From Acidobacteriota bacterium (GTDB lineage Bacteria; Acidobacteriota; Thermoanaerobaculia; Multivoradales; UBA5704): DNA of 64,000 bases. The stretch lies in assembly GCA_040005235.1 (NCBI GenBank), contig JBDTZG010000013.1:1-64000 (forward strand). Direction: 5' to 3'. Both the position numbers and the translations under genes were made by a program. Shown one piece after another: positions 13,565 to 55,659 of the stretch (the first letter of the stretch is position 1; each line of letters begins with the position of its first letter). The notes below the pieces were generated by a model. The model was not told the DNA's origin and did no database searches. It was given only the letters and a program-made list of their open reading frames with translations.

Positions 13565-13602
13565 AGTCGACCCATCCGTTAAGGTCGCCCTACTCCTGCG
13601 CC

Positions 13603-15132: not shown

Positions 15133-15236
15133 GGTCGGCGGATGCTAACACCGGCCGGAGATGACCTCCGACCTGCAGCAGATGCCCTTTGAGGGGAAAA
15201 AGCTTGAGATCACCGCACTTTACGGCTAACCTTTAA

Positions 15237-17077
<1,841 letters not shown>

Positions 17078-17081
17078 CCCG

Positions 17082-18701: not shown

Positions 18702-18987
18702 AAATTGCCTAGAACGCGGGCGGCTCCAGTTCTGCGCTGCTCCTATCACCAACTTGTCATCGTAATCGCGGGCCAATTGCCACCATCAGAAATGAAACTG
18801 CGCTTATCCGGTTCGCATCCTTCGTAGGCGCGAGGAAATAGCGGCAGCAGCGTGGGGATAGCCGAAACCGTCGATCTGATTGTGGAAGATCGGGTCACGA
18901 TGGCGGCTATAGCAAGACCATAGCGGCTATCGCGGCTCAACATCAGCCCTGCCGGCGTCACTGTGAGCTGCAAAGAACCGGTAGCGA

Positions 18988-19025
18988 AAAGAGGCCCGGC
19001 GACTTGGGCGTCGCCGGGCCTCTTT
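18988..19025 (-). terminator. Rho-independent terminator of the CsgG-like gene (possibly bidirectional)
   Basis: AAAGAGGCCCGGCGAC-TTGGGC-GTCGCCGGGCCTCTTT 16-bp inverted repeat with A/T tails. Confidence 0.85.
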
Positions 19026-19051
19026 GGTGAAACTGGGATCCCTCGTGCGTC

Positions 19052-19681: not shown

Positions 19682-19825
19682 GTTCGATGACCTCCTAGGG
19701 AGAGGTCCCCTTTTGGAGGACCCGTTTGATCGCCCGCATTCAGAGCAGAGATGAGGGGACTTCCCCGTACTGGCGCTGCTCGGCTGCGAAACGTTACAAG
19801 TCTAATTCTAGCGCGTTTCCGCCCC

Positions 19826-30221: not shown

Positions 30222-30231
30222 TCCCTCCGCT

Positions 30232-30864: not shown

Positions 30865-31483
30865 TTCCTCCGCGGCGTTTAGGCGCGGAAGGGCTCTCGA
30901 TGTTACCGACCAATTTGCCCGCCACTCCCGCGGCCCCCGCGACGACACCGAGCAGCTCGGCCCGCGCGCTGGTCGCCTTTTCGCGGCAGCGCAGGACCCG
31001 CACCCGCAGGGTGCCCTCCGCCACCGTCAGCCGGTCGCCCATCTCCTTGTAAGACAACCCTGCGGCGAGCATGCGCCAAAGGTTTCGGCAATCGTAGGGG
31101 ACGCGGTCGAGCACCCGCAGCAGGAGGTCCCGATCGACCCGGGTCTCAGCCGGGCTCGGCCCGGGGGAGCGCGGCTGATCCGCCCCTTCGAGCTCGTCCA
31201 GGTCTTCCCACTTGTGTTTGTTCTGCGCCCGCACCTGATCGAGGCAGGTGTGGGAAACGACCCGCCAAAGGTAGGTCTTGAGGCTCGAATCCCCCCGGAA
31301 CTTGCCCTGCCCGAGCAGACGCGTGATTTCGAGGCGAATCTCTTGGAGCACGTCGTCCCAACGGTGGGCGAGGCGGCGTTGGTAGGGCCAGGCCGCGCGG
31401 GTGATCCAGCCGTCGATGGTCGAAATGGACGAACGCTCGCCTCCAAGGAATCCCCGGACGACTTCCGCATCCTCCCCTTGCAT
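30845..31483 (-). CDS. ECF RNA polymerase sigma factor (copy 1)
   Basis: WDDVLQEI...FRGDSSLKTYLWRV, GLSYKEMG...EGTLRVRVLRCR; close paralogue of copy 2. Confidence 0.92.
   Translation of the reverse strand: MQGEDAEVVRGFLGGERSSISTIDGWITRAAWPYQRRLAHRWDDVLQEIRLEITRLLGQGKFRGDSSLKTYLWRVVSHTCLDQVRAQNKHKWEDLDELEGADQPRSPGPSPAETRVDRDLLLRVLDRVPYDCRNLWRMLAAGLSYKEMGDRLTVAEGTLRVRVLRCREKATSARAELLGVVAGAAGVAGKLVGNIESPSAPKRRGGNANDLR
30880..30907 (-). promoter_or_regulatory. Candidate ECF promoter GGTAAC-N16-CGCCTA upstream of sigma copy 2
   Basis: Same hexamers and spacer length as 30237-30264 but an unrelated spacer sequence. Confidence 0.6.
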
Positions 31484-31620
31484 ACTTCGGCACCCCCTTG
31501 AGACACCTTAGATCTTAGCCGCAAAGCGCGGGCATCTGACATGGAGCCCGGTCTAGAATGGCCCGGACCGACGGCTCGGGGAAGCCTCTTTTGTGGGCCG
31601 CTGTTTTCCGGAGGCTCTGG

Positions 31621-34575
31621 TTGACGATCCACGCGGAACCCATTCGATCCGCCCGCCGGGGGCGAGATCTCCTCGCGGGATTTCTCGCGGCGGCGCTCCT
31701 CGGCGCCTTCGCGGCGGCTCGGCTTGGCGCGGCGCAAGAGGCCGATCGCGATCTCTGCGCCGACGAGGGAACCTTCAGCCGCGCGCTCGCCGATACCGAT
31801 CGCGGAGATCTCGACGCGGCGCGGAAGGGATTCGAAGCGGCACGGGCCTCCTTCAAGCTCGCCCTCGACCTGCCGTGCGAGATCGAATCGCTCTATCGCG
31901 TCGGCCGCCTGCTCAAGAACCAGGGCAAAGCCGATCTGGCGATCGAGGCGTTCGAGGAGGCCTTGCCGCTGGTCGATCGCCTGCTGCCGCTCGCCGCGAA
32001 GGACGCCGACGCAGCTTTGGTCTGCGGCAAGGTCTGGAACCTGCTCGGATTCACCCTGCTCGGCCAAGGCAACATCAAGGACGCCCGCCGCTACATCGAG
32101 CAAGCCGTGGAGCTCGCCCGCTGCTGGCCGGCAGACCCGAGGTTCCCTTATTCCTCTTGGGCGCGGAATCTGGCGAACGTCGAGGCGAAGGCGGGCGACT
32201 TTCCGACCGCACGCCGGCTCTACCTCGAGCTTTTGGCCCTGCCGATTTCCGACGGCTTGGAGATCGCGAGGTTGAACATCCTGCTCGGATTCATCGAATC
32301 GAGCAGCGGCAACGTCGACGACGCGCGCCGCTACCTCGACCAGGCGGAGGGCTTCGCCTTCGACGATCCCCGCATCGGCTGGCAGGTCTGGCACGAGCGC
32401 TGCGCCATCTCCTCGCGCCTCGGTTTGCTCGACGAGGCGCTCGACCAGTGCGCCATCGCGTTGATTAGGGCCAAGTCGGATCCCGACTGGGAGGCCCAGA
32501 CGCTCAATCTTCTCGGCAGCTTGAGCTCCGATCTCGGTTCGTACGAGTCGGCCCTCCAGAGCTTCGCGCGTTCGCGGGAGATTTTCCGCCAACTCAACCT
32601 CGCCGGGCCCGAAAGCAATTCTCTGTGCAACTTCGGCTTCGGCCAGGCGCAGCTGGGCCGGTTCGACGAGGCGCAGAAGAGCTTTGCCGAGGCCGCGAAA
32701 CTCGCCGCCCGAGTGGGCAATTCCGGCAGCGAAGGGTTCGCGCTCTATTTGCAGGGCCGGGTGGCGCTCCAGCGCACGGCCCACGGATCGAGAGCCGAGG
32801 TCCTGGCCGCCCACGCGGTCCTTACAAAGGCGCTCGACCGCATGAGCCAGGCCGGTGACGTTCCCGGACAGGCCGACGCCCAGCTGGAGCTGGCCGGAGC
32901 CGAAACTCGCCTGGGCGACTTCCCCGGCGCGCTCGGACGGCTCGACCTGGCGTTCGCCCTGGCGCAGAAGCTGGAGGATCCGGTACGCCGCGCGGCGGTC
33001 CTCACTCGCCGTGCCGAGATCCTCGCGGAGAGCGGCAAGCTGGAGCCCGGGCTCGCGGCGATCCAAGACGCCGTGCGCGAGATCGACGACCTTCGCACGC
33101 GGGTGGCAAGCCCTCCGCTGCGGGCCACCTTTTTCGCCAGCCGGCGCCGCACCTTCGAGCTGCAAATCGAAATCCTGCTGCGCCTCGCGAAGCTTCATCC
33201 CGATTCCGGCTTCGAGATCCAAGCGTTCGAAGCGAGCGAAGCGGCCCGGGCGCGCAGCCTCCTCGACCTGTTGGTCGAGCGGAGCCTCGCCCAAGGTCGA
33301 AACGCGAATCCGGTACTTGCGGGTCTGGTTCGCCAGGGCCTCGATCTCGACCGCGAGCTGAACCTTGCACAGGCACAGTCGAGAACCGCTCCGGCGGAGC
33401 CGAAACTTCCCGAGCGCGAGCGCCTCGACAGAAGGATCGCGACCCTCGAAGCGAATCTGCAGGAGGTCGAGCGCCGCTTACGCATAACCGATCCGCGATA
33501 CGCCGCGGTGCGCTATGCCCGGGCGCTCGGAGCGCGGGACATCCAGCGCGAGCTGAGCGACCACGAGATCCTGCTCGAGTACGTTTTCGCCGCCGACGCG
33601 GCCTACCTCTTCGCGGTCACTCGAGAGCAGGTCCGCGCCCTGCCGCTGGACCAACCCGCGATCGCGAAGATCCTGCCGCCCTTTCGCGCGCGGCTCGCCG
33701 GAGGACAAGGCCTGGAGCAAGCCCTGCGGATCGACGCCCGGAAACTCTACGATCTCCTGCTCGCTCCGGCTGCGGAGCTACTCACCGGCAAAGACCGTCT
33801 GATCGTGGCCGCCGACGGCGATCTCTATTTCCTTCCTTTCGAGGTTCTCATTTCCCCTGCGCCGCCGGGAGCGTCTCCTTCCTACCTGATCGAAACCAAG
33901 ACGATCTCCTACACCCCCTCCGCCAGCGTGCTCGCGCGGCTCGGGGAGCTTCCGGTGGGCGACGCGTTCGAATTCGTCGGCGTCGCGGTCGGCGATCCGA
34001 AGGATGGCTCGGCCGTTCTCGCGAAGGTCGACGACGAGGTGAGGGGCATTGCGGCGCTCTACCCGGCGGAGCGGAGCCGCCTGCTGCTGGACGGTGCCGC
34101 GACCGAAGCGGGTCTCTCGGGATTGCACGGCGCATTGTCCGGCGCGCGGCGCATCCATTTCGCGACCCACGGCTATCTGTCGGACGATCCGCAGCGGATG
34201 GGCCTGCGCCTCGCGCCCGATCCGTCCGGAGGGGACGGACTGCTGCAAGCTTTCGAGGTTCTGCGCCTCGATCTTCACGCGGACCTCGTCGTGCTCTCCG
34301 CCTGCGAAACGGCGGTCGGCCAACAGGTTCCCGGAGAAGGGGTGATCGGCCTGCCGCGCGCCTTCTTCTACGCCGGAGCGCGCAGCGTCGCGGTCAGTCT
34401 GTGGCGCGCGCCGGACGATGCCACCGCGCGGCTCATGACCTCGTTCTACGGCCATCTGCAACAGGGCCAGGACAAGGCGGAAGCGCTGCGCCAGGCCAAG
34501 CTCGAACAGATTCGCGACCGGCAGCGCCCGTTCCTCTGGGCACCGTTCGTTCTCGTCGGGTCGCCGATACGGTAA
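31621..34575 (+). CDS. TPR-CHAT domain protein (caspase-like clan CD cysteine protease)
   Basis: N-terminal hydrophobic signal-like segment, many TPRs, CHAT motifs DGDLYFLPFEVL, IHFATHG (His), VVLSACET (Cys), GARSVAVSLW, PFLWAPF; TTG 31621 has GGAGG (ORF track start 31558). Confidence 0.92.
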   Translation: MTIHAEPIRSARRGRDLLAGFLAAALLGAFAAARLGAAQEADRDLCADEGTFSRALADTDRGDLDAARKGFEAARASFKLALDLPCEIESLYRVGRLLKNQGKADLAIEAFEEALPLVDRLLPLAAKDADAALVCGKVWNLLGFTLLGQGNIKDARRYIEQAVELARCWPADPRFPYSSWARNLANVEAKAGDFPTARRLYLELLALPISDGLEIARLNILLGFIESSSGNVDDARRYLDQAEGFAFDDPRIGWQVWHERCAISSRLGLLDEALDQCAIALIRAKSDPDWEAQTLNLLGSLSSDLGSYESALQSFARSREIFRQLNLAGPESNSLCNFGFGQAQLGRFDEAQKSFAEAAKLAARVGNSGSEGFALYLQGRVALQRTAHGSRAEVLAAHAVLTKALDRMSQAGDVPGQADAQLELAGAETRLGDFPGALGRLDLAFALAQKLEDPVRRAAVLTRRAEILAESGKLEPGLAAIQDAVREIDDLRTRVASPPLRATFFASRRRTFELQIEILLRLAKLHPDSGFEIQAFEASEAARARSLLDLLVERSLAQGRNANPVLAGLVRQGLDLDRELNLAQAQSRTAPAEPKLPERERLDRRIATLEANLQEVERRLRITDPRYAAVRYARALGARDIQRELSDHEILLEYVFAADAAYLFAVTREQVRALPLDQPAIAKILPPFRARLAGGQGLEQALRIDARKLYDLLLAPAAELLTGKDRLIVAADGDLYFLPFEVLISPAPPGASPSYLIETKTISYTPSASVLARLGELPVGDAFEFVGVAVGDPKDGSAVLAKVDDEVRGIAALYPAERSRLLLDGAATEAGLSGLHGALSGARRIHFATHGYLSDDPQRMGLRLAPDPSGGDGLLQAFEVLRLDLHADLVVLSACETAVGQQVPGEGVIGLPRAFFYAGARSVAVSLWRAPDDATARLMTSFYGHLQQGQDKAEALRQAKLEQIRDRQRPFLWAPFVLVGSPIR

Positions 34576-38760: not shown

Positions 38761-41700
38761 CTACCCCTGCACGAAGTACCCGAAGTACTGCCGACTCCAC
38801 CGCTGGACGGTGACCGTGGGGTTGCCGCAGGCGGGCTCCGCCCGCAGCACGCGCACCTGCGCCAAGCCGATCGGGCAGGTCTGCGGGATCACCACGTCGA
38901 GGTGTTTGCCGTCGGTGCCGATGGCGGTGGTTACGGCCTGCTCGCAGATTGCGCCGCCGGCAAAGCGGAACTGGACTTTGAGCACGCCGGTCAGCTCGAT
39001 GCCTTCGAGCCGGATCTTCGCGCGGCGGATCGAGCCTACGCGCGGCCAGATTTCGGTCACCACCGGGCGGCCGGAGTCGGCCGGGCGGTCGTTGCGCCAG
39101 AAGGTGACGCGGTCGCCGAACGGGTCGTTGGCGAGATCGAGGTCGCCGTCCTCGTCGATGTCCAAGGCGACCAGATCCTGCGAGTCGGTCGAGCGGCGGT
39201 ATTGGGTGAGGATCGTCGGGGTGATGTCGGTGAACGTTCCCGGCGGCGGCGAATCGGCCGAGGTGATCAGGCCGTCGCCGTTTGAATCGACTCCGTTGTT
39301 CATCAGCACACGTGGCAGGTCGTTCACCACCTGGTAGATCAGGTCGAGGTCGCCGTCGCCGTCGAGGTCGGCGAACGCGGGGAACATCGCCTGGTCCATG
39401 CCCGGCGTCGGGTTGCCGGCCGGGTCGGTGGGCGCCGTGTGGATCACCGGCGAGAGCGAGCCGAGGGGCATGCGGGTCTGGAATTCGTCGACCATTCCGC
39501 CGGTGGTGGCGATTTTGTTGATCAACAGCCAGGGGTAGTTGGTCCGGGCGCCTGCGGCGTAGTGGGCGATCGCGACGTCGGAATCGCCGTCGTTGTCCAG
39601 GTCGCCCTGGGCGATGCCGAACGAGCCGCAGGAGATGTAGGACGTGTCGCCCAAAACCTGATCGGTACAGGCGGCGGGCAGCACCGTCGCCGACGATTCG
39701 GTGAGGGTGCCTTTGGGGGTTCCGACCCCGTTTAAGAACAGCAGGTCTTTCGTCTGGGAGACGCTCGTCATCTCGGCCGCGGTCTTGGCGAAGCCGAGGG
39801 TGGTGAACAGGTCGAGCGCGCCGTTGTTGTCGAAATCGGCGAGCAGGTCCATCCCCAGGCCGCGGTTCCAGGCCGGATCGTAGGTGCCGGACGTCGTGCG
39901 CATCTGGGTCGGGGCTACGTCCTTGAACCAGTGAGCGCCGGCGCCGGCCGTGCCGATGACGTTCTTCAAATAGCGCCAGCCGAAGGCGTACGTGCCGATC
40001 GGGTTGGGAAAGAGCGGCGGGGCGACCATGGGCACCGGCCCCGAATAGCCGCTCGGCAGGATCTCGAACAGATGGACGATCGCGTCGACGTCGCCGTCGT
40101 TGTCGAGATCGCCCGCGACCGCCCGGTCACCGATGCCCGGCAGCGGCAGCGAGGTGCGACCGTTCGGGTCGATCCTCGCGTCCTCGGTCGTGCAGGACGA
40201 GGCGGTGTAGAGCGAATCGAAGCCGAAAGTGCCGCTGCCGGAATTGACCAGGACGATCGAATCCGGACTCGTGTCGACGCAATACGGCCAGGCCGGCGTG
40301 CGCTGCGAGGCGAGCAGCGCGTCCACGTCACCGTCCCGGTCGAAATCGGCGAACACGCCGTCTTCCATCCCCTGCGGGATCTGCCGGCCGCGCTTGTTGC
40401 TGGTCTGGCCCGTGCCGCCGAAGGGAGAAGCGTAGTCCTCGTGCTCCGCTTCGATCGCCCCCGCGATGCTGCCGACCAGGTAGTTGTAACCGCGCGAGGT
40501 TTGGAGCGCGTCAAGCGCGCCGTCGCCGTTCCAATCTGCGAAGTCGAAGCCATAGCCATGCTCGGTGCCCGGCATGGTCTGGTAGCTCTTGAAGCCGATG
40601 AAGCCGCCACTGAAATCCCACGGCTGGCCGGCTGTGGCGCCGGGGCCGTTGCCGAGGTTCGAGTGGAGATCGGGCAGCACGCCGCTCCAGCGGTTGCCGT
40701 TCCCCTCGAACAGATCCTTGAAGCCGTTGTTGTCGAAGTCGGCGACCGCCACGGTCTTCGCCGACTGCGTGGGAAAGGCCGTGTACGGCTGCAAGGTGGG
40801 AAACCCGGAGGTCCAATTCGCCTTGTTGGTCATCACGTAGACGCGGCTCGAGGCGCCGGTGAAGGTGTCGTGCTTGAGCAGGTCGCGTTGCGAAACGATG
40901 ACCAGGTCGAGCCAGCCGTCGGGCGCGTTGCCGGAAAGCGTCGGCGGATTCGTCGCCGGCCCGAACAGGTCGACCAGCAGCACCTGCTGGGTGAGCGGTG
41001 CCGTCACCACGTGCTCGGTGGGAAAATTCGGCGCGTTCGTGTCGAGGATCGGGTTCATGAAATCGGTGAACGAATCGAGCGTTCCGCCGAACGAGACGTC
41101 GTTGGCGAAGATCTCCATCAGGTGATCCTCGGCAGGGGTGAGCACGAGGTTCTGGCTGAAGCCGTCCGAACCGGCATTGCCCAGCACGATCTCGGGCCAG
41201 CCGTCTCTGTTCAGATCGCCGAGGGCGACGCTCCGGCTGTCGGATTGCACTCCCGAGGCGAGGGGCACCACCTTGAAGTTGCCGCTGCCGTTGTTGATCA
41301 GAACGTAGTCTTCGCTTTCGGCGCCGCAACCGGCGCTGGCGCAACGGTTGGCGACCGCTAGGTCGAGATCGCCATCCTGGTCGAGATCGATCGCCGCCAC
41401 GTCGTTGGTCGCGCGGGAAAGCTCGCCCGGAATCCGGGTCGCCGTCTCGTCCTTGAAGCATCCCGTGCCGTCGTTGATCAAGAGGACATTGGTGGCGCCC
41501 TTATAGTTGTCGCCTTGACGGCCGATGTAGAGGTCGGCCCAGCCGTCGCCGTTTAGATCCTTGTACACGACGCCCGAGCTATTGCCGGCGGTGGCCGAGA
41601 CGGGGATGCGCGGTCCGGTCGAACAGGTATCCTGCGAGATGTCGCCCCAACGGCCGGTCGCCGGATCGCGGCGCATCAGCAGGTCGGTCTGCGCTTGGGC

Positions 41701-42375
41701 CGCGTTCGCCTGCTCGACCGGATCGGGATCGAGATCGCCAAGCCCGTAGCCGATGCCGGCGGTGACGTACAGGTCGTCGCAGACGGTATCGAGCGGATCG
41801 GCGCAACCGAAGGCCCCGCGAGTCGCCGAGACGAACAGGAACGAGAAGCCGCTCCACGGAACCGGCGGGTCGGTCTGAACGTTCTGGTAGTGGCCGTCGA
41901 TCGACTGGAAGAAGGTCGGTTTTCCGTAGCGGACGGTCTTGGTCGGATCGATCAGCGCGTCGCTGTAGTTGACGAACAGCTGGAGACCTTTCTTTTCCAG
42001 CGACGCTTCCATCAGCTTGCGGGTCCCGCCAGCCGCGGGGGCGATCCCCTCGGGCGGATCGAACTGTGCGACGTTGAACAGCAGCACGTCGGTGTAGGCG
42101 GCCGGTTGCTGGCTCCCCAGGCCGATCAGATCGCGCGCCAGACTGAACACCGTGTCGCCCGGATCTTCGTAGAACTGGTGCGCGCCCCAGACGTACTCGC
42201 CCGTGTCGCGCTCGTAGTTCCAGGGTGTGAGTTTGGGCGGCGGCGGATTGATCGGGATCGGCTCGAGGCAGATCGCGGGACCGATCACCACCTGGGCTAC
42301 CGCGGGCCAAGGAAGGAGAGACGCGAGAAGGGCCGCCCCAAGGGCAACCCGGCGGACGGAACGTGATTTCGACAT
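38761..42375 (-). CDS. Large secreted FG-GAP/VCBS-repeat beta-propeller protein with C-terminal IPT-like domain
   Basis: Signal peptide; about a dozen D(L/F)(D/N)xDGxxD repeats (DLNGDGWAD, DLDQDGDLD, DFDRDGDVD, DLDGDGDLD...); ATG 42375 after GGAGA. Confidence 0.9.
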   Translation of the reverse strand: MSKSRSVRRVALGAALLASLLPWPAVAQVVIGPAICLEPIPINPPPPKLTPWNYERDTGEYVWGAHQFYEDPGDTVFSLARDLIGLGSQQPAAYTDVLLFNVAQFDPPEGIAPAAGGTRKLMEASLEKKGLQLFVNYSDALIDPTKTVRYGKPTFFQSIDGHYQNVQTDPPVPWSGFSFLFVSATRGAFGCADPLDTVCDDLYVTAGIGYGLGDLDPDPVEQANAAQAQTDLLMRRDPATGRWGDISQDTCSTGPRIPVSATAGNSSGVVYKDLNGDGWADLYIGRQGDNYKGATNVLLINDGTGCFKDETATRIPGELSRATNDVAAIDLDQDGDLDLAVANRCASAGCGAESEDYVLINNGSGNFKVVPLASGVQSDSRSVALGDLNRDGWPEIVLGNAGSDGFSQNLVLTPAEDHLMEIFANDVSFGGTLDSFTDFMNPILDTNAPNFPTEHVVTAPLTQQVLLVDLFGPATNPPTLSGNAPDGWLDLVIVSQRDLLKHDTFTGASSRVYVMTNKANWTSGFPTLQPYTAFPTQSAKTVAVADFDNNGFKDLFEGNGNRWSGVLPDLHSNLGNGPGATAGQPWDFSGGFIGFKSYQTMPGTEHGYGFDFADWNGDGALDALQTSRGYNYLVGSIAGAIEAEHEDYASPFGGTGQTSNKRGRQIPQGMEDGVFADFDRDGDVDALLASQRTPAWPYCVDTSPDSIVLVNSGSGTFGFDSLYTASSCTTEDARIDPNGRTSLPLPGIGDRAVAGDLDNDGDVDAIVHLFEILPSGYSGPVPMVAPPLFPNPIGTYAFGWRYLKNVIGTAGAGAHWFKDVAPTQMRTTSGTYDPAWNRGLGMDLLADFDNNGALDLFTTLGFAKTAAEMTSVSQTKDLLFLNGVGTPKGTLTESSATVLPAACTDQVLGDTSYISCGSFGIAQGDLDNDGDSDVAIAHYAAGARTNYPWLLINKIATTGGMVDEFQTRMPLGSLSPVIHTAPTDPAGNPTPGMDQAMFPAFADLDGDGDLDLIYQVVNDLPRVLMNNGVDSNGDGLITSADSPPPGTFTDITPTILTQYRRSTDSQDLVALDIDEDGDLDLANDPFGDRVTFWRNDRPADSGRPVVTEIWPRVGSIRRAKIRLEGIELTGVLKVQFRFAGGAICEQAVTTAIGTDGKHLDVVIPQTCPIGLAQVRVLRAEPACGNPTVTVQRWSRQYFGYFVQG

Positions 42376-42469: not shown

Positions 42470-43225
42470 TTACGACCGCGCGAGATTCGAAAGAATCTGC
42501 CCGGCTTCCTCCAGCCGACCGAGATCGCGCGGCAGCTCCAGGGCGTAGGCGGGCACGACGCTCGCCGCCGCGACGCAGGCTTCGAGGTGGGCGGCCAGGA
42601 GGTCCGGGCCGTAGCGCCGCGCGGCAACCGTTTGGCCGAGCAGCAAGCGGGCGGTCTCGGCCGGGCGCAGGCGGGTAAGCCGCGGCGCGGGCGCCGTCCC
42701 CGGTCCGGCGAGAGCGATCAGCGCGGCGACCGGCGCGGGCGCTCGATACCGGCGCGCCGGGTCGAGCTTGAGCTGCGGATAGTCGAGATGCGCGATGAGC
42801 CGATCTTCTGCCAGCTCGAACGGCAGAAGGTCGTCGGCGGCCCGCTCCCATTCGGGGTACTCCAGAGCCGCCAGCGTCGACTTGCCCCGTCCCGATTCCC
42901 CGAGGAAAACGAACAGGCGGCCGTGGACGAATACCGCGCTCGCATGCAGCGCCCAGATCGCACGGGCCGCGAGCAGCAGGAGGATCGGCGGCCCGAGCGC
43001 CAGCTCCTCGAAATGATCGGGGTCCAGGTCCGCGACTTCGAGCGGCGGCGCGATCAACGATCGGCCGTTCCGCGGCAGCCGCCCACGCGCCTCGGGCGGA
43101 CCGAGGCAGAAGAGCGGCCGATCGGTCCAGAAACGTCGCCCGGCGAGGGTATAGCCGAACGCCTCTTCGCCCTGGCCCAGCCTGAGGATCGGCTCCCCCT
43201 TGCGGGGTCGAACCCGGGCGTACAT
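42470..43225 (-). CDS. HPr-kinase-like P-loop kinase (type found in lasso peptide clusters)
   Basis: LHASAV, Walker A GESGRGKSTLA, ADD motif; ATG overlaps the C25 stop (TGATG). Confidence 0.85.
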   Translation of the reverse strand: MYARVRPRKGEPILRLGQGEEAFGYTLAGRRFWTDRPLFCLGPPEARGRLPRNGRSLIAPPLEVADLDPDHFEELALGPPILLLLAARAIWALHASAVFVHGRLFVFLGESGRGKSTLAALEYPEWERAADDLLPFELAEDRLIAHLDYPQLKLDPARRYRAPAPVAALIALAGPGTAPAPRLTRLRPAETARLLLGQTVAARRYGPDLLAAHLEACVAAASVVPAYALELPRDLGRLEEAGQILSNLARS

Positions 43226-46200
43226 CAGGGCCGGAGCTTCATCGCGGGATCGCCGAGCAGCGTCCAGCCGAGCAGGGCGTCGCGCAGATCACTCGGACCC
43301 CCGGCGATCGCCGCGATCGTCCGCTTGGCCTGGAGCAGCGCGTCGCCGATCGTGGTACCGGGGACCATCAGCCGGGCGAGCAGCGCCGGCCCCAGCAGTT
43401 GGTCCGATTCGGTGCGCGAGAGCGTCGCCGAGCCGATTACCGCGGCGGCCCCCTGGGGACCGGCGAGCAGCAGCCGGTGCGCCAGAGTGTCCACCTCGGG
43501 CGCCACGTGGTAGGTGTTCCAGCAGCCCCACTGGACGACCAGCGAAGGGCTGCCGACGTTGTTGAGCGCCGCCCCGTCGGCCGCCGAGAACAGCCCCCGG
43601 AAGCTCCAGACCGTCGGGCCGGAATGGCCGACGTAATGGACCAGCGCGGGGCCTTGATCGAACGCCGCGATCAGCTGGGATCTTGCAGCCGCGGCCCCCA
43701 GGTCGTCGACGTAGGCCCGGACCAGGGGCCAGGCGGCGGGCACCTGGGAGATCAGCTGATCGCTGATCGAGCTGAACGTCCGGGCGACCTCGGCTTCCGT
43801 GCCGTCCGCCGCGTCCGCCGCGAACAGCGCGCCGGTCCGAGAGCCGTCGAAGGCGAGGGTCTTGGCGATCAACTGGCGCAGCTCCGAGGCGGTGCGCGCC
43901 GGGAAACGGCCGAGCGCCAGATCCTGCACCCCGTCGCCGTCGAGGTCGCCGTAGACCGAGTCGGCCGGGGTGAAGCGGATCAGGTCGTCGGTCTGCGCGT
44001 AGGGGGTCGGGATCAGGCTCACCGAGCCGATACCCAAATGGTCGAAATAGTCGTAGGTGTCCGCTCCGACCAGCAGCAGATAGCGCGCGCCGAGCTGTTG
44101 GGCGGCGTAGCGGACGTAGTCGCGGATCGCCTGCGGGTCGATCTCGCCGCCGGAATAGGCGGCGTAGAGATCGAGCACGTCGACCAACTTGACTCTGTGT
44201 CCTTCGCTCTCGCGCGCCGCGATCAGCGGCGCGAGCTCCCCGGCGAGGCTAGGATGGGTGACGATCAGGTAATCGGCGCGCCGGTTGCCCAGATCGGCGG
44301 GCGCTTCGCGCGCCGGCTGGATCGCCGGGTGGAGCATCGCCGAAGCGGTCGAAAGATCGACCGCGCCGACTTTGGTCGCCGCTCCGGGGATCGAGAACGC
44401 GGCGCGGAAGCCGCCGCCGAAATTGTCGATCGCCACGTTCGAAAGCCGCGAGGCGCCGCCCTTGGCGTAGACCACGAGGTCGTTGGCGCCGAGCCCCTCG
44501 ACCTCGATCCTGCCCGGCGCTCCCGGGAAGCTCAGCCGGTCGTTCCGCGCGACGAAGCGACGGGGATAGCTCACGGCGTAGCGATCGACGTGCACCAGGT
44601 CGAAGGCGTTGCCGGTGTCGCCGGGCAGACGGACCTCCAACGTGTTCGTCCCTTCGAACAGCAGCCCGGGCGGCAGGGGCAGGTCGTAGCTTTTGGCCGT
44701 CAGGCCGTCGAACCGCTCGTCGACGAGCTGCGTGCCGTCGAGCGAAATCTGCAGGTGATGATCCGGCGTCGAAGGCCAGTTCGTGACGCCCCAAAGATCC
44801 ACGTGCAGCCGCGCCTCGGTGCTGGCCGGAGCGTCCACTTCGATCGGAAAGCTCTTGGCCGTCGGGCGCCCTTGAGCGAGCACCGGCGCCTCGTACCAGG
44901 GATCGCCGTTCGGCGAGGCGAAGCTGTAGACCAAGTCGCGGTCGATCGCCAGCACTTCCCCGTAGGAGGCGACCGAAGCGCCTTGCGGCGTACCGTCCTC
45001 CACTAATACCCGCGACGGCCGACGGCCGACGGCGAGGCGATAGACCCGAGACCGGGTGTAGAGGCTGCCCGCGACCGCCTCGCCGCGGAATTCGACGAAC
45101 GACCCGGGACCGAAGATCTCCGAACCTTTTTCGCCCCCTTCTACGTAGATCGGCACCTCCTTGCCGGTCCGCGCCGCGGTGAGCGAGAGGCGGGCGAGGT
45201 TGGCTCCGGCAAAGTCGATTCCCGCGGCGCGAAGCTCTTCGTAGGTCACGCGGTAGAGGCCGTCGGCATCGACCCGCAGCTCGGCGGCGGGAACGCTCGC
45301 GACGCGGCTTTGCGCCCGGCGGTCGTCCTCGGCCGAGGCGGCGATCTCGGCATGCACAGTCGCCCAGTCGATCGGCTCGGCGGCCGAGGGCCGGCCGTAA
45401 GGCCGATCCAGCGCGAACGGTCCGTGGCGGGTCCGACCGCCGTCGAGGCCCGCGTCTTCGAGCAGCAGCTCGGTCCACCCGCCGTCGGGAAGAACCCGTC
45501 GATAACTCTGCGGCGCCAGCCGGTCGAGCGAACGGGCGGGCAGCAGCTTCGGCGTCAGCGGTTGCCACGCGTCCTTCGGCCCCTTGCGGCCGAGCAGCGC
45601 ATAGCCGACGGTCGAGGTCTCGGTTTCGGTGGTCCATTCGACCTCGATCCCGCGGGTGGTCCGGGCGGCGGAAAACGACGCCACGCTCACGGGGAGCGTG
45701 CTGACCGGGATCTGATAGTCCTCGACCTCGCCGCTGGTCGCGACGCCGACCGGCGTGGTCACCTCGGCCGCGGTGTACGAAGTCCGGAACCGGGCGTAGG
45801 TCGCGGTCGTCCCTCCGGCGTTGCTCGGCACAGCGCTCCAGGTGACGTTGAACGCGGTGGGGGTCGAGGTATTGGCCGGCACGGTCACGGTGCCGGAGAT
45901 CTCGTTGGCGTCGAGGAAATCGCCGTCGCGGTTCCAGTCGATGTAGCCGACCAGCGAGCCTGCCGTGGTGGTCGAAAGATTCACCGCGGTGACGCTCACC
46001 GTATAGCTCGTCGAAGGAGAAGCGTAGGCGGGGAACGAAGCGAGGCCGTCCTCGTCGTCGACGCCGCCCACCTGGGTCGTGTCGTCGGTGGTGGCCGCGG
46101 CGCCCGCCTGGCCGTCCGCCTCGCCGTCGGGCGGGTTGGTGCCGAGATAGAGGGTCCGGTCGCCGATCGCGTGGCGCGCGCCGCCCGCGAGCAGCGTGCC

Positions 46201-47430
46201 GTAGCTGTTCGGCGCGTCGCCGTAGTCGTAACCACAGAAGACGAAGTCGCTGATCCCGACGACCATGAACTGGTTTTCGTTTGCCGGATCGTCGCCCTGG
46301 GTGTAGTTCAGGGTGATCGAGGAGACCGCGCCGGTAAACGCCACGTCCAGGTTTCCGGTCGTCGTGTTCTGCGCCGCCGACGCGTCCCCTTCGGCGAGAT
46401 CGCCGGCCAGTTGCGCGTTGCCCCCCGCCACCGCCGCGATGGTGTAGGGAACCCGGTTGCCGGACGGTCCGGTCCCCACCACCTCGATCTGGTCCTCCCA
46501 GCTCCCGCCCGTGATGTCGACGTCCAGGAAGGTGAAGCGTAGATCCCGCACCGGACGGGAAAAACTGAGCGTCGAAACCAGGCCCACCCCTTCGTTGTCC
46601 TGGGTTCCGGCCGCCGCCGCCGCATCCATCGACAGCGAGTAATAGCCGGTGTGGTTGCCGTTGATCGTCGTGCGGGTGAGCACCCCGTTGCCGAGGGTGC
46701 CCGCGGCTGTTGCGCCCGTGCCCGCAAAATCGCTGGTCGCCCCTTGGGTGATGGTCAGATCGCCCACCGTCGCGTTGGTAAACGGCACGACGCTGCCGTT
46801 CGCACCCCAGTCGTAGGTCACGGTCCCGGTGCAAACGGAGGTCGCCGCCGCGGTGCTCACCAGCGTGAGGTACGCCCGATTGAAGGTGCCGTTGGTCGCG
46901 TTGTTGTTGATGTCGCAGATGTTGAGCGTCCAGGTCCCGCTGCTCGCCACGCCGGAAAAAGCGGTGTCGATGTTGGCAACCGGCACGATCCGATTGAAGA
47001 AAGGCGCCGCGGTCGGATCGACGTCGGTGTCGGCGAGCGTCCCTTCGGTGTTGGACGAAAGAAGGATGTCGAAGTTGTCCTGCGTATCGCCGCCCCCGCC
47101 CGCCGTGCCCGCGATGAGCTGCAGGGCGGTGCCGCTCGGCGACACTAGAGTGAGCCGTACGTCGCCGCGGTTGGCGTGGTCGATGTTGAAACCGAGACCG
47201 ACCCGAGACACCGAAAACGAGTCCGAGACGGAAAACGTCCGCACCAGCGGGGTGGCGCAGCCCGCGGCCCCCGCCGCCGCGGCGGAAAAGCTCACGGCTC
47301 CGGACGTGGCGTTGGTGTAGGTATAGGTCAGGGCCTCGGCCGGACCGTCGATCAGGCCGAAAGCACCGAGGAGAATCGTCGCGGAAGTGAGACCGCGGAA
47401 GGTTGCGAAGCGGGAAAATCGGATCGACAT
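43225..47430 (-). CDS. Secreted multidomain C25 (gingipain-family) cysteine peptidase with proprotein-convertase P-like and GEVED domains
   Basis: Signal peptide; NIDHANRGDVRLTLVSPSG (P-domain); DYGDAP...GEVEDY; LPVSVASFSA linker; C25 motifs ADYLIVTH, YLLLVGAD, ALGRFPA, HYVGHSG (His), WGCWN (Cys), LLGDPA. Confidence 0.9.
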   Translation of the reverse strand: MSIRFSRFATFRGLTSATILLGAFGLIDGPAEALTYTYTNATSGAVSFSAAAAGAAGCATPLVRTFSVSDSFSVSRVGLGFNIDHANRGDVRLTLVSPSGTALQLIAGTAGGGGDTQDNFDILLSSNTEGTLADTDVDPTAAPFFNRIVPVANIDTAFSGVASSGTWTLNICDINNNATNGTFNRAYLTLVSTAAATSVCTGTVTYDWGANGSVVPFTNATVGDLTITQGATSDFAGTGATAAGTLGNGVLTRTTINGNHTGYYSLSMDAAAAAGTQDNEGVGLVSTLSFSRPVRDLRFTFLDVDITGGSWEDQIEVVGTGPSGNRVPYTIAAVAGGNAQLAGDLAEGDASAAQNTTTGNLDVAFTGAVSSITLNYTQGDDPANENQFMVVGISDFVFCGYDYGDAPNSYGTLLAGGARHAIGDRTLYLGTNPPDGEADGQAGAAATTDDTTQVGGVDDEDGLASFPAYASPSTSYTVSVTAVNLSTTTAGSLVGYIDWNRDGDFLDANEISGTVTVPANTSTPTAFNVTWSAVPSNAGGTTATYARFRTSYTAAEVTTPVGVATSGEVEDYQIPVSTLPVSVASFSAARTTRGIEVEWTTETETSTVGYALLGRKGPKDAWQPLTPKLLPARSLDRLAPQSYRRVLPDGGWTELLLEDAGLDGGRTRHGPFALDRPYGRPSAAEPIDWATVHAEIAASAEDDRRAQSRVASVPAAELRVDADGLYRVTYEELRAAGIDFAGANLARLSLTAARTGKEVPIYVEGGEKGSEIFGPGSFVEFRGEAVAGSLYTRSRVYRLAVGRRPSRVLVEDGTPQGASVASYGEVLAIDRDLVYSFASPNGDPWYEAPVLAQGRPTAKSFPIEVDAPASTEARLHVDLWGVTNWPSTPDHHLQISLDGTQLVDERFDGLTAKSYDLPLPPGLLFEGTNTLEVRLPGDTGNAFDLVHVDRYAVSYPRRFVARNDRLSFPGAPGRIEVEGLGANDLVVYAKGGASRLSNVAIDNFGGGFRAAFSIPGAATKVGAVDLSTASAMLHPAIQPAREAPADLGNRRADYLIVTHPSLAGELAPLIAARESEGHRVKLVDVLDLYAAYSGGEIDPQAIRDYVRYAAQQLGARYLLLVGADTYDYFDHLGIGSVSLIPTPYAQTDDLIRFTPADSVYGDLDGDGVQDLALGRFPARTASELRQLIAKTLAFDGSRTGALFAADAADGTEAEVARTFSSISDQLISQVPAAWPLVRAYVDDLGAAAARSQLIAAFDQGPALVHYVGHSGPTVWSFRGLFSAADGAALNNVGSPSLVVQWGCWNTYHVAPEVDTLAHRLLLAGPQGAAAVIGSATLSRTESDQLLGPALLARLMVPGTTIGDALLQAKRTIAAIAGGPSDLRDALLGWTLLGDPAMKLRP

Positions 47431-47454
47431 GTCATCACCTCTTCAAAAGATCCC

Positions 47455-47631
47455 TCACTGTGCCTTGAAAATAGCGGGATTGCCGCTTTCGCCGACACCG
47501 GGCGACGGCCCGAGGGTGAACGTGCGCAAGTCGCCATGAACGATCAATCGCGGCGTTTCATACCGGCGCTTGGGCCCCGGGGGGGTGGGTTCGGCAGGTG
47601 GCAAAAACACAGAAAACACCAGGTCGGGCAT
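47455..47631 (-). CDS. Lasso peptide precursor, 58 aa (predicted core GPSPGVGESGNPAIFKAQ)
   Basis: ATG 47631 with GAGGAAGG RBS, 7 nt after the cyclase stop; leader YETPRLIVHGDLRTFT-L fits YxxPxLxxxGxxxxxT with Thr at -2; core has Gly1 and Glu8. Confidence 0.88.
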   Translation of the reverse strand: MPDLVFSVFLPPAEPTPPGPKRRYETPRLIVHGDLRTFTLGPSPGVGESGNPAIFKAQ

Positions 47632-47638
47632 ACCTTCC

Positions 47639-49540
47639 TCACTCTCTCCGGCAGGCCGAGATCTCCCGCTGGGGCACTTCGAAAGCTCCCCGCACTCCGC
47701 TATCGAAATACTTTTCAGGCGATCGACGCTGCCAGATTTCGAACGAAAACGCCAACCAGACCAGCAAACCCGACAAGCCGCATCGCCGCTCCCGCCAGCC
47801 GGTCTCCACCCACTCGGGCAAGAGATAATCTCGCCACGCGGCGTTGGGGTTAAGCAAAATCGCGGCCACCTCGCCGGTTGGATCTGCGTAGACGCCGGAA
47901 ACGAAGAGATCCTCAAACGTCGCCTTGTCCTGCCGGTCGAGGATCGAGCCCGGCAGCAGGCCCGACAGGGCTTGCCGCAAGATGGGGCGCGAATTCCCCT
48001 GGACGCCGAGGTCCTCGGCCGGCAAACCCAAAAACAGCTCGATCACCCGTCGATCGCGCATCGGGTGCCGCACCTCGATCCCCAGGGGGTCGCAGTAGTA
48101 ACGCTCGATCGAGAGCCCGTGGCCGTTCTGCGCGCCGAGCAAGCTGCGCGCCTGCGCCGGGCGCGGGTACTCGGCCGCCCAGCCGTCGCGCTCGATCGGC
48201 TCGGGCAGGAGAGCGAGCGAGCTTTCGGTCAGCCAGGCAAAGCGCTCCGCTTTACGCCGGGCGGCCCGCTCCAGCCGCAATCGATCCGGGAGCAGCGCGC
48301 CGAGCGCCTGCCGTAGCGCGCCGTCGCCGGCGCGGAACCGGCGCCACAGCTCGCCCGCGGCGGCCCCAAAACGCCCGGCCCGCAACGTTTCCTTCAATCG
48401 GTACTCGGCGCCGCCGTAGAGCTGATCTCCGCACAGGCCGGACAGAAGCACGGGGCTGCCAATCCGCTGGGCGGCCTCGTAGGCCCGCTGGTGGAAGTGC
48501 CGGTAGGCGTTTTGCTCCGGCGTCGCCGGATGGGTCGGCCAAGACGCGAGATCGGCGAGCGGCAGCTCGTCGTCGCACGGCAGGCGGTGCAGCTCGAGAT
48601 TCAGCGCGCGCTCCAGCACCGACAGGTGCCGGCTTTCGTCGGCCCGCGGATGGCGGGGAAAAACCCAAGAGAGCGCCCGCAGCCGATCCCCCGCGGGAAG
48701 CGCCCGCTGCGCCAAGGCGGCAATCGGAGCCGAATCGAGGCCGCCGGACAAGAGGACCGCGGGCCGGCCTGCCGATCGAAGGCGGCAGCGGACGGCGAGG
48801 TCGAGACGGTGGCGCAGCTCTTCGGCGCGCTCCTCCGGCCGCCTCTTCAGAAGCCCGGCGGCCGGCCGCGGCCGGGAAAGCCTCTCGCTGCGCGCGCGGT
48901 CATCGCGCACGATCAGGATCTCGCCCGGCTCAAGTTGCCGCACGCCCTGGTAGAAAGTACGACCGGGCTCAGGGTCTTCGAGCGAAAAGTACGCCGCGAC
49001 CCGGGTCCGGTCGAGCGCCATCTCGCGGCCCAGCGTCGCCGCCACGGCCCCTTCTTCGGAAGCCGCGAGCAACCGGCGATCGTCGAGCGCCACGGCGAGG
49101 TTGCGGCCGCCCAGGGCGTCGCGGGCCAGGATCGCCTCCCGCCGCGTCGCATCCCAGATCGCGATCGCGAACGGCCCGAGCAGGCGTTCGAATCCGGCGA
49201 TCCCCCAAGCGGCAAAGACGGCGGCGGCGAGCCGCGCGTCGCTTACCTTCCGAAGCGGACCCGGAGAATCCGGCAACGCGCGCCACAGCGTCTCCCGGTC
49301 GTCGATCCGGCCGTCGAAAGCCAGCCATGCTCGCCAATGTCCGGGAACCGGTATCGGCTGGTGCTCCCCCAACTCTTCCGGCGTGGTCCAGAAATGAAGG
49401 TGGCCCAGAACGCCACCGGCACCCCCGGCGGTGTCCAGGCCCTCCCGACCCCGATGAGCCATGTGGCCCAGCAGCCGCTCAAGGATTGCGGGAAGAAGCT
49501 CCGCGCCCTGGCGTGCCATCGCGAGACCGAGCGCGCTCAT
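47639..49540 (-). CDS. Asparagine synthetase-like lasso peptide cyclase (C protein)
   Basis: FDGRIDDRE, LARDALG, LLSGGLDS ATP-binding loop, LSGLCGDQLY, RHPMRDRRVIE; lacks the N-terminal Cys of true AsnB; adjacent to the precursor. Confidence 0.88.
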   Translation of the reverse strand: MSALGLAMARQGAELLPAILERLLGHMAHRGREGLDTAGGAGGVLGHLHFWTTPEELGEHQPIPVPGHWRAWLAFDGRIDDRETLWRALPDSPGPLRKVSDARLAAAVFAAWGIAGFERLLGPFAIAIWDATRREAILARDALGGRNLAVALDDRRLLAASEEGAVAATLGREMALDRTRVAAYFSLEDPEPGRTFYQGVRQLEPGEILIVRDDRARSERLSRPRPAAGLLKRRPEERAEELRHRLDLAVRCRLRSAGRPAVLLSGGLDSAPIAALAQRALPAGDRLRALSWVFPRHPRADESRHLSVLERALNLELHRLPCDDELPLADLASWPTHPATPEQNAYRHFHQRAYEAAQRIGSPVLLSGLCGDQLYGGAEYRLKETLRAGRFGAAAGELWRRFRAGDGALRQALGALLPDRLRLERAARRKAERFAWLTESSLALLPEPIERDGWAAEYPRPAQARSLLGAQNGHGLSIERYYCDPLGIEVRHPMRDRRVIELFLGLPAEDLGVQGNSRPILRQALSGLLPGSILDRQDKATFEDLFVSGVYADPTGEVAAILLNPNAAWRDYLLPEWVETGWRERRCGLSGLLVWLAFSFEIWQRRSPEKYFDSGVRGAFEVPQREISACRRE

Positions 49541-54180: not shown

Positions 54181-55659
54181 CTACCCTGCCTGCTCGTCGG
54201 CGTAAAACCGGTAAAAGTAGTTCGCGTCCTCGAACGGGTGCTCGTCGAGCACGTGATGGAGGAGGCCGCGCTCGACCAAGAGGCGGCCGACGCGAAGGGC
54301 CTCTCGGCGGCTGGTGCCTTCGGCGCGGACGAGCCAGTCGACCGCTTCGCGCCCGGTCAGACAGCGGGGGTAGACGTTCCACAGATGGCGCCGGTCTTCG
54401 ATCGCGACGCCCCCTTCCCCGCGCATTTGCGTCGCCAGGGCCGCCAGCTCTTCCTCCGTCCAGGGCCGGCCGGCAAGGTCGCGGTCGGCTCCGTCCTCCC
54501 CCTTCGCGGCCGGGGCTCCGGCGGTCGCTTCTTCCGCCTGCGCCGCGTGGACCACGCGCTGGGGCAGCGGCATTTCGAGCCCCTCGCGGCGAAAAGCGCT
54601 TTCGATCCCGAAGTTCAGATCGCTTTTCAAGCTGCTCTGTTCGCGCGGGTCGCGGGTCCAGACCAACAGATCGAAGTGGAGCGCGCTGTCGCCGAAGGCG
54701 GTGAGCTGAACCGTCGGGGCCGGCTCGTCCAGCACGTCGGGATGCCGGCGGGCGACGCCGAGCAGGGCGTTGCGCACCTTGGCGATCGGGCTGCTGTAGG
54801 CCGCCGGGACCGGAATCCGCAGGCGCGACACCGGATCGCCATGGCTCCAGTTGATCACCTCGGTTTCCAGAAAGCGCGAGTTCGGCACCAGGATGCTCAC
54901 CCGGTCGGTGGTGCGGATGACCGCGCTTCTTGCCCCGATCCGTTCGACCGTCCCCGAGAACTTGCCGACTTCGACGAAATCGCCGCTCTTGATCGGCCGT
55001 TCGAGGCCGATCAGCAGGCCGGAGACGAAGTTGTTCGCGATGTTTTGCAGGCCGAATCCGAGCCCGATGCCAAGCACGCTGCCGACGATCGCGAGCGTTC
55101 GCGCGTCCAAGCCCCAAACCTGGAGGACGATCAGCCCGCCGACGAACAGCAGCGCATAGCGCAGCAGGCCGGTCAGGCTGTCCTCGGCCGACGCTTCGAG
55201 CCGCAATGGCCGCAGCAGGTAGGACCGGAACAGCCAGGTGACCCCGGCGACGCAAATCCACAGCGCGCCGAGGGCGATCGGGAGCATCACCAGGTCCGCG
55301 GCCGAAAAGGCCTGCTTTTCGATCGCGAAGAGCGGCCGGTTGAAGCTCGCTGCGAGCAGCTCGACCCCCCGGCGGCGCAGGGTTCCCAGGCCCGGAAAGC
55401 GGTCGACGGCAAAGGTGCCGGCCGCCAGCCAGATCCCCCATTTGAAGGGCAGGAGTGCCAGCTCCAACCGATGCTGCCAAATCAGATGGACGCCGGGCGC
55501 CGGCGGCGCCAATCCCCGGCCCTGCCGCTTGCGCCGGGCGCGGTCGGCGAGCCGAAGCGGCAGCCGTCGGCCGAGCCGCCAGAGCGCGAAATGCGCCAAG
55601 GCCGCAGCGCAAAGCGCCGCAAGGCCGAGCGCCAGGGAGGGCATGGGGGAATCGGGCAT
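54181..55659 (-). CDS. mscS: MscS-family mechanosensitive channel fused to a C-terminal DEP domain
   Basis: GIGLGFGLQNIANNFVSG, ERPIKSGDFVEV, VPNS, VINWS; tail DRRHLWNVYPRCLTGREAVDWL...GLLHHVLDEHPFEDANYFYRF is a DEP signature. Confidence 0.9.
   Translation of the reverse strand: MPDSPMPSLALGLAALCAAALAHFALWRLGRRLPLRLADRARRKRQGRGLAPPAPGVHLIWQHRLELALLPFKWGIWLAAGTFAVDRFPGLGTLRRRGVELLAASFNRPLFAIEKQAFSAADLVMLPIALGALWICVAGVTWLFRSYLLRPLRLEASAEDSLTGLLRYALLFVGGLIVLQVWGLDARTLAIVGSVLGIGLGFGLQNIANNFVSGLLIGLERPIKSGDFVEVGKFSGTVERIGARSAVIRTTDRVSILVPNSRFLETEVINWSHGDPVSRLRIPVPAAYSSPIAKVRNALLGVARRHPDVLDEPAPTVQLTAFGDSALHFDLLVWTRDPREQSSLKSDLNFGIESAFRREGLEMPLPQRVVHAAQAEEATAGAPAAKGEDGADRDLAGRPWTEEELAALATQMRGEGGVAIEDRRHLWNVYPRCLTGREAVDWLVRAEGTSRREALRVGRLLVERGLLHHVLDEHPFEDANYFYRFYADEQAG

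Follow-up and report, generated by a model that had tools for sequence, protein, structure and literature searches.

Research on lasso peptides has mainly treated them as free antimicrobials or as ligands of receptors; their gene clusters are defined by a precursor (A), the leader-processing proteins B1 and B2 and a cyclase (C) lying side by side. The described clusters that come closest to the present one are those of the phosphorylated lasso peptides, namely the paeninodin, pseudomycoidin and bsf (Bradymonas sediminis) clusters, which combine a YxxPxL leader, an Asn-synthetase-type cyclase, discrete B1 and B2 proteins and an HprK-like kinase (K); none has been described with a C25 peptidase. 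According to the report on the bsf cluster, the kinase BsfK phosphorylates Ser3 of the core with the help of B1 (PMC10368454). The clusters of linear polyphosphorylated peptides (LPPs) in Bacillota share with them an RRE, the recognition element of peptides made by the ribosome and modified after translation (RiPPs), and an HprK-like kinase whose target leader is of the form [Y/W]xxP, and they are suspected of a role at the cell surface; they differ in having no cyclase and a signal-peptidase-like leader protease, and the words C25, PorU, gingipain and sortase have no occurrence in the text of that report (PMC13381572). In the present study, we analysed a window of 64,000 nucleotides from an Acidobacteriota bacterium (C126:1-64000, on the 109-kb contig C126 of a 6.2-Mb genome in 140 contigs; DNA with 66% G+C), in which a lasso-peptide operon includes the gene of a large secreted C25 protein. 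We consider it rather probable that this operon belongs to a widespread, unstudied lasso-peptide family in which a conserved ring, an HprK-like kinase and a secreted PorU-like C25 protein go together, and that for this operon B1 and B2 are supplied in trans, the peptide is phosphorylated and the C25 protein acts after export. The four genes of the operon are as follows.

47639..49540, minus strand: lasso cyclase (C), 633 amino acids (aa), P0001, recognised by Pfam, NCBIfam and the PP-loop motif.
47455..47631, minus strand: precursor (A), 58 aa, recognised by NF033521 lasso_leader_L3 and an upstream GGAAGG ribosome-binding site.
43225..47430, minus strand: secreted multidomain C25 protein, 1401 aa, P0003, recognised by Pfam, NF033707 and the PorU profile alignment.
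42470..43225, minus strand: HprK-like P-loop kinase, 251 aa, P0004, recognised by its overlap with the C25 gene, a family signature and weak profile matches.

All four open reading frames (ORFs) translate without stops, and the three large ones have the codon-position G+C of genuine genes (0.82-0.87 at third positions). The cyclase stop is 7 nucleotides from the precursor ATG, the GGAAGG ribosome-binding site being placed at most 7 nucleotides upstream of the precursor; 24 nucleotides separate the precursor stop from the C25 ATG, and the C25 stop and kinase start overlap by one base. The first-pass annotation of this DNA had described four linked minus-strand genes, for an AsnB-like cyclase, a 58-aa precursor, a 1401-aa C25 peptidase and an HprK-like protein, and both coordinates and spacing agree with it. 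The order C-A-C25-K is that of the clade of the window, a Thermoanaerobaculia-type form. Compared with the clusters of phosphorylated lasso peptides, B1 and B2 lie outside the operon, and there is no ABC exporter or nucleotidyltransferase.

In the 1401-aa protein, Pfam located P_proprotein at residues 75-188, GEVED at 493-574 and Peptidase_C25 at 1054-1399 (E 1.2e-65). The last of these covers the full PF01364 model (positions 1-374), which places the protein in family C25 of clan CD, and it runs to residue 1399 of 1401, that is, to the protein end. The protein starts MSIRFSRFATFRGLTSATILLGAFGLIDGPAEA, a signal-peptide-like N-terminus; by a hydropathy score and by eye, 18 of 22 listed full-length C25 proteins of the family, those of L012-L016 included, begin with a hydrophobic segment of this kind. 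The N-terminal parts of the family vary (SdrD_B, DUF11, DUF7933, lectin-like, GEVED, P-domain; total length about 1300 to more than 3200 aa), and the final ~700 residues are the constant part, forming the C-terminal end in nearly every case. These C25 modules are 35-84% identical to that of the window. A profile of 38 modules aligns with residues 36-785 of PorU, the sortase of the secretion system of type IX (T9SS) of Porphyromonas gingivalis (PDB 6za2; E 2.5e-30), so that the whole ~700-aa module is aligned, with the GH(S/G)G and Cys motifs and the FAAD stretch in common. In 38/38 modules, H569 and C603 of alignment A1 are invariant; these residues, which correspond to His1269 and Cys1303 of the window protein, are the predicted catalytic dyad.

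Unlike PorU, the window protein stays far under the cut-off of the PorU model NF033707 (127.5 bits over residues 717-1399, cut-off 420), ends at the C25 domain without a C-terminal sorting domain and carries an adhesin-like N-terminal fusion. Proteins of its type occur in Acidobacteriota and Chloroflexota, phyla that are not known for T9SS. Judged by its sequence, the window protein is PorU-like in architecture and falls outside the T9SS PorU equivalog (NF033707). The gingipains RgpB and Kgp share with it the Pfam family C25 and the region of the catalytic dyad; their match to the 38-module profile is weaker and partial, limited to the catalytic half (E 1e-15 to 1e-10). In the printed profile alignment, of low reliability at this place, the S1 position Asp163 of RgpB falls on a Lys of the family consensus. 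The gingipain-family label given in the first annotation holds for family membership, by Pfam, and not for likeness to gingipains, since profile alignment puts the module closer to PorU.

The tie between this module and the cyclase was followed across genomes. Relatives of the cyclase were scanned with one genome per species, which gave 76 loci, all in metagenome-assembled genomes (MAGs); profiles made from the proteins of the window and of contig C80 of the same genome, which holds a second lasso cluster, were run over all ORFs of these loci, with fetched flanks of up to 10 kb. A C25 homologue was present within the flank in 53 of the 76 loci. The usual order in the relatives is giant C25 protein-C-A-K-B1-B2, and the linkage is kept despite changes of order, with the C25 gene upstream, between A and K, downstream, convergent or divergent. 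When 59 cyclases were placed in a quick maximum-likelihood tree (SH-aLRT branch support only; several rows of odd composition were flagged), one clade of 51, starred in the tree (support 99), holds all 45 C25-linked cyclases of the tree and six others without C25 in the flank; the C80 cyclase and other unlinked cyclases fall outside it.

The reciprocal comparison started from the C25 module. In a sample of 151 genomes of the class of the window (G019, G119 and G150, flagged as unpublished, enter the denominators only), the ~700-aa module matches 71 genomes with a bimodal distribution: 15 matches in 13 genomes reach at least 412 bits, and the rest have 228 bits or less. Of these 15 matches, 13 adjoin a cyclase match, and all 11 cyclase matches of at least 190 bits in the sample adjoin such a C25. 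Among 121 genomes sampled from the class Anaerolineae, 60 have C25-module matches, only two of which reach 523 bits or more, and both abut a cyclase. The C25-cyclase linkage is specific in both directions and is not absolute. Conservation of this linkage, on which the first-pass annotation had made its interpretation depend, was thus confirmed across genomes (53/76 loci, 45/45 in one clade, 15/17 in the reciprocal samples); on this ground the C25 enzyme may have a role connected with the cell surface, as was suggested there.

Several observations were made on C25 modules outside this linkage. No high-scoring module was found in G171 (locus L021), G174 and G175. The distant C25 paralogues of the class (~30% identical) had no PqqD, radical SAM, S26 or kinase gene by Pfam in 5/5 regions covering same-strand ORFs for 12-14 kb downstream. 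Around the unlinked copies in G173 and G172 the neighbours are B12/radical-SAM, methyltransferase, sugar and polysaccharide genes, and no HprK, B1 or cyclase gene was found among them; in L119 and L120 (G173:C5:102000-137999) the copies lie near three B12-binding/radical-SAM genes and a methyltransferase gene on the opposite strand. In L117 (G056:C2:630000-649999), two high-scoring modules stand in tandem at 4666-18733 (ORFs of 1391 and 3233 aa) with no cyclase nearby, and a weak B2-like ORF is found in L118, ~12 kb from these copies, in DNA of 74-77% G+C that is hard to annotate. About ten Anaerolineae loci have the order C25-C-A-K-B1-B2 followed by surface-polysaccharide genes (DUF4012, Wzz/GNVR tyrosine-kinase type, Wzt-type ABC ATPase, TMEM260-like mannosyltransferase), for example L024 at 8125-13327, L078 at 19041-20939 and L027 at 18769-20061.

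The lasso nature of the operon is carried by its cyclase and precursor. The cyclase matches Pfam Asn_synthase (E 1.3e-35) and GATase_6/7, among the NCBIfam models it scores highest with the lasso cyclase NF033535 (238 bits, under the cut-off of 525), and the PP-loop motif SGGLDS was seen in its translation. The precursor consists of a 40-aa leader MPDLVFSVFLPPAEPTPPGPKRRYETPRLIVHGDLRTFTL and the core GPSPGVGESGNPAIFKAQ, and the 58-aa peptide passes NF033521 lasso_leader_L3 (20.7 bits, cut-off 19). The leader ends ...RRYETPRLIVHGDLRTFTL and has the frame Y-x-x-P-x-L-x3-G-x5-T-x; the segment ...YETPRLIVHGDLRTFTL shows the YxxPxL motif and the Thr at -2 of lasso leaders, followed by a core with Gly1 and Glu8. 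A Gly1-Glu8 ring of eight residues with a tail of ten residues is predicted for this core.

Precursors of the same family were found by a strict pattern in 44/53 C25-linked loci and by a looser one in three more (L024, L041 and L057), and the window peptide was aligned with 49 from related loci (n=50). Y24 and P27 of the leader and G41, which is Gly1 of the core, are invariant; residue -2 is Thr in 41, Val in five, Ala in three and Ile in one. The Asp or Glu acceptor occupies core position 8 in 44/50 and is directly followed by Ser in 44/50. The common ring motif, G-x-S-P-G-x-G-D/E-S, sets the family apart from the clusters of phosphorylated lasso peptides, and the tails differ in sequence and in length (cores of 15-51 residues). 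The cores have a Ser or Thr at position 3 in common with the BsfK target Ser3 of the bsf cluster as that report gives it (PMC10368454); because this residue was built into the search pattern, its frequency does not count as a result, and it is also seen in most cases with the looser pattern. In the long, Pro-rich tails of Anaerolineae precursors (L027, L028, L052, L055, L059 and L064), a second motif of about (L/I)PQPGG(F/Y)YPPEF follows the ring. The short tails in Acidobacteriota do not have this motif, which may serve as a signal for docking or cleavage. The Lys or Arg near the C-terminus of the tails in the clade of the window (F-K/R-x) was considered as a gingipain-type site and dropped, because the module is PorU-like, the position aligned with the RgpB S1 Asp is not acidic in the printed alignment and the Chloroflexota tails are without the pattern.

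The fourth gene was assigned to an HprK-like kinase family with the help of its relatives. P0004 has no Pfam match, and TIGR04352 and TIGR04355 are weak on it (14 and 13 bits, cut-off 200). In 25/25 members of the kinase family, H94, G109, G114, K115, S116, D131 and D132 are invariant, giving the signature H...GESGxGKS...ADD, and the family profile has weak matches, longer than the P-loop, to HPr kinase 1ko7/1jb1 (21-22 bits) and to phosphoenolpyruvate carboxykinase structures. An HprK-like homologue is present in 45/53 C25-linked loci. By analogy with BsfK, a phosphoserine is expected on Ser3 or Ser9 of the core.

No PqqD (B1) or Transglut_core3 (B2) was found in the window or on contig C126, as the first-pass annotation had also noted for the window. 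When the whole genome was searched in six frames, both domains were found only on contig C80 (73.1 and 60.1 bits; next best 16.6 and 16 bits). On this contig of 6802 bp lies the second lasso cluster of the genome, a canonical A-C-K-B1-B2 (L011, G000:C80, 1023-4669, minus strand). Its precursor has 56 aa, with a leader ...KRKHYASPQLSIYGRLFDLTL and the core SENGDGEDAEFAGSRPASRPPGSTGR, starting SENGDGED; its cyclase (559 aa) is 27% identical to that of the window, and the HprK-like kinase, B1 and B2 have 326, 104 and 168 aa, respectively. The B2 passes NF033537 (69.7 bits, cut-off 33), and the best model of the B1 is the lasso PqqD chaperone, under its cut-off. The cluster adjoins a truncated SdrD_B protein, the contig breaking inside repeats. 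An orthologous second cluster is present on another contig in the sister genomes G001, G002, G003 and G005, also near contig ends. The two precursors of the genome have the same leader frame, K-x-x-Y-x-x-P-x-L...T-L. In Bacillota, RREs are reported to tell Tyr from Trp leaders, while lasso RREs of other phyla, such as FusB1, are relaxed (PMC13381572). Because of the common leader frame and the relaxed lasso RREs, it is plausible that one B1/B2 pair is shared by both clusters.

The distribution of the B genes in the relatives gives further evidence. Of the 53 C25-linked loci, 30 have B1 and/or B2 locally (both in 26) and 23 have neither; local B genes occur in 23/27 of the Chloroflexota-labelled loci and in 7/24 of the Acidobacteriota-labelled ones ('Multivoradales' included). 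The first-pass annotation had suggested testing across genomes whether cyclase homologues co-occur with C25 and lack B2; co-occurrence with C25 was found (53/76), and most of the C25-linked loci have local B genes. In the 30 related loci the cyclase beside B1 and/or B2 is of the same clade, and local loss of B genes requires at least five changes on the starred branches of the cyclase tree. Of the 27 distinct genomes whose C25 cluster has no B genes beside it, 25 have a PF13471 Transglut_core3 match over the Pfam cut-off (duplicates were removed by identical places; the genomes are related and not independent); for comparison, the rate is 40/138 among the remaining genomes of the class sample.

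These B genes are placed in various ways. In G012 (L038) the match is near after all, as K-B1-B2 and a precursor just past the giant C25 gene on a contig of equal length, and G170 (L067) has a second full cluster ~8-18 kb away. Second lasso clusters with their own cyclase are present in G000, G001, G002, G003, G005, G008, G013, G015, G166 and G167. In G004, whose only lasso-type cyclase is the C25-linked one, an orphan SdrD_B-B1-B2-GroEL group (L098, G004:C74 7110-11151) has no cyclase, kinase or precursor in 20 kb; this B1-B2 pair looks like a remnant of a C80-type cluster that kept only its B genes. Lone B2-B1 pairs in G006 and G007, and a lone B2 among unrelated genes in G009, G010, G011 and G014, have no cyclase in 13-20 kb, and G168 has K-B1-B2 without cyclase. 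In the closed chromosome of G011, the two C25-linked loci (1.47 and 2.17 Mb), the B2 gene (3.00 Mb) and the PqqD matches (0.76, 1.79 and 5.42 Mb) are 0.3 to 1.5 Mb apart, with B2 0.8-1.5 Mb from the C25-linked loci. We know of no other use for an orphan lasso-type B2, so the stand-alone B genes argue for action in trans. Between the two options of the first-pass annotation, B genes in trans or a non-canonical pathway, the former is favoured by the single C80 pair, the same layout in the four nearest relatives and the stand-alone B genes elsewhere, and from these sequence comparisons we regard it as likely that B1 and B2 act in trans for the window operon.

In the mechanism that we propose, the RRE (B1), supplied in trans from C80, would bind the precursor in the cytoplasm through its YxxPxL leader, and the B2 peptidase, also from C80, would cut after Leu(-1). 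The kinase would phosphorylate a conserved serine of the core, either Ser3, by analogy with BsfK, or Ser9, and the cyclase would join Gly1 to Glu8 to give a phosphorylated lasso. After export, the PorU-like module would act outside the cytoplasm, either on the mature peptide or together with it, and our preferred guess would be cleavage or transpeptidation in the C-terminal tail. The comparative evidence makes some direct interplay between peptide and C25 protein appear reasonably probable; cleavage or transfer of the tail by the module is a tentative suggestion, possible and yet to be doubted sooner than believed. A precedent for a cluster-encoded protease that acts on the mature peptide instead of the leader is known from Astexin-type lasso clusters, in which a dedicated lasso isopeptidase works on the mature peptide; this is a serine protease of another fold without C25 homology, and the clusters have a fused B protein. 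In the most far-reaching form of the mechanism, the PorU-like module would be a RiPP sortase, which after export cuts the tail of the phosphorylated lasso and attaches the peptide to the envelope or to its own adhesin part. On the present sequence comparisons we hold this to be decidedly unlikely. If true, it would be the first covalently anchored lasso peptide and a function of a PorU-type transpeptidase outside type IX secretion.

Several points weigh against the mechanism proposed here. All genomes compared are uncultured MAGs, and the proposed contact between C25 module and peptide comes from comparative genomics. Two modules of at least 412 bits in the class sample, the extra copies in G056, are unlinked, G172 and G173 have high-scoring modules away from their own cyclase, and the genome of L021 contains the precursor type of the family and no C25 at all. 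The C80 pair was not assigned to the C25-linked or to the other clusters by trees of B1 (77 columns) and B2 (131 columns); its nearest outside rows are L044 (C25-linked) for B1 and L072 (unlinked) for B2, with no support. Moreover, in G144 (98% complete, in 30 contigs) and in G157 (96% complete) the four-gene cluster is present and no credible Transglut_core3 or PqqD match was found anywhere in the genome, the best being 26 and 22 bits in ORFs of more than 500 aa and 14.7 and 11.7 bits. By our estimate, one or two misses of B genes among 27 genomes that are ~96-98% complete are about what incompleteness predicts.

Among the other explanations, the one that survives best takes the lasso peptide as a ligand of the protease, that is, a tight-binding inhibitor, activator or cofactor of the exported PorU-like module, and not as its substrate. 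Protease inhibition by lasso peptides is known, conservation of the ring sequence across phyla, along with the C25 module, is unusually high, and a tail that varies in length and sequence fits an interaction centred on the ring. However, a regulator role leaves the constant presence of the kinase unexplained, and we consider this explanation improbable, though worth keeping in mind.

It may also be that there is no direct biochemical link, and that the peptide genes and the giant surface protease form one co-regulated surface or biofilm module with separate targets. The adhesin-like, variable N-terminal parts of the C25 proteins (SdrD_B, DUF11, DUF7933, lectin, GEVED), the continuation of about ten Anaerolineae loci into polysaccharide genes and the unlinked modules of some genomes all agree with such a module, and phosphorylated lasso peptides and LPPs of Bacilli are reported to co-localise with capsule loci (PMC13381572). 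Against this, one C25 subfamily goes with one cyclase clade through rearrangements and across phyla, a bond tighter than is usual for co-regulation, and we give the explanation little credit.

A B1/B2-independent pathway, in which C25 or another non-B2 protease removes the leader, had been put forward in the first-pass annotation. It would account for G144 and G157, which have the cluster and no detectable B1/B2, and pseudomycoidin is reported to be obtainable from a leaderless core without leader peptidase (PMC6993621). In contrast, B1 and/or B2 are retained close to the cyclase in 30/53 C25-linked loci, B2 is present elsewhere in 25/27 of the locally B-less genomes, and the leaders, with YxxPxL and T(-2), keep the features for recognition by B1/B2, that of G144 included. 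The C25 N-termini are signal-peptide-like, and an ATP-dependent lasso cyclase needs a free core N-terminus inside the cell. Since a secreted enzyme cannot supply this free N-terminus in the cytoplasm and most relatives keep B1/B2, C25 was rejected as leader peptidase, and a pathway independent of B1/B2 is very improbable. Lastly, chance adjacency of C25 and cyclase was rejected, because the 53/76 linkage, the single clade and the reciprocal genome samples speak against it.

On both sides the operon is flanked by genes of large secreted proteins, an FG-GAP protein and an SdrD_B protein, as was seen in the first annotation and confirmed by Pfam. The FG-GAP gene follows the kinase gene.

38761..42375, minus strand: FG-GAP repeat secreted protein (Pfam FG-GAP_3, E 5.6e-42), 94 nucleotides downstream of the kinase gene.

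Its true start is probably the ATG at 42375, which is followed by a signal-peptide-like segment, and not the TTG at 42627, so the start was revised. The gene is possibly co-transcribed with the operon; it is kept downstream only in L012, L014 and L015 and is a lineage-specific neighbour. A scan for promoters and terminators between 38000 and 50200 gave no promoter-like and eight terminator-like sites, with 8.3 expected, and is uninformative on the limits of the operon. In G144 (G144:C4, L114) and G157 (G157:C17, L115), two distant genomes of Thermoanaerobaculia, the C25-lasso cluster stands beside the genes of the glutaminyl- and glutamyl-tRNA synthetases, and in G144 its four genes lie alone between them, which suggests an old, conserved insertion site in these lineages. 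Elsewhere in the window, an ECF sigma and zf-HC2 anti-sigma pair adjoins the gene of a 1005-aa TPR plus CHAT (caspase-like) protein at 29253-34575, the CHAT protein being another clan CD peptidase-like gene product of the window. At 54181-55659 (minus strand), an MscS-type mechanosensitive channel has a C-terminal DEP domain (PF00610, E 3.6e-20), a domain known mainly from eukaryotic signalling proteins.

Full-text searches of the literature library used found no paper that links lasso peptides or RiPPs with C25, gingipain or PorU. In the C25-tied lasso family proposed here, at least 50 loci in Acidobacteriota, Chloroflexota, Entotheonella and a deltaproteobacterial MAG combine a near-fixed ring and a kinase with a tie to a secreted PorU-like peptidase. 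The findings also suggest that the leader-processing B genes can be scattered over the chromosome and shared, so that genome mining that demands B beside C would miss or mis-score such clusters. With no more than four to six genes, the system lends itself to reconstruction in a laboratory host. Overall, the family suggests that a lasso peptide may act at the cell surface and that a PorU-type enzyme may have a task outside type IX secretion.

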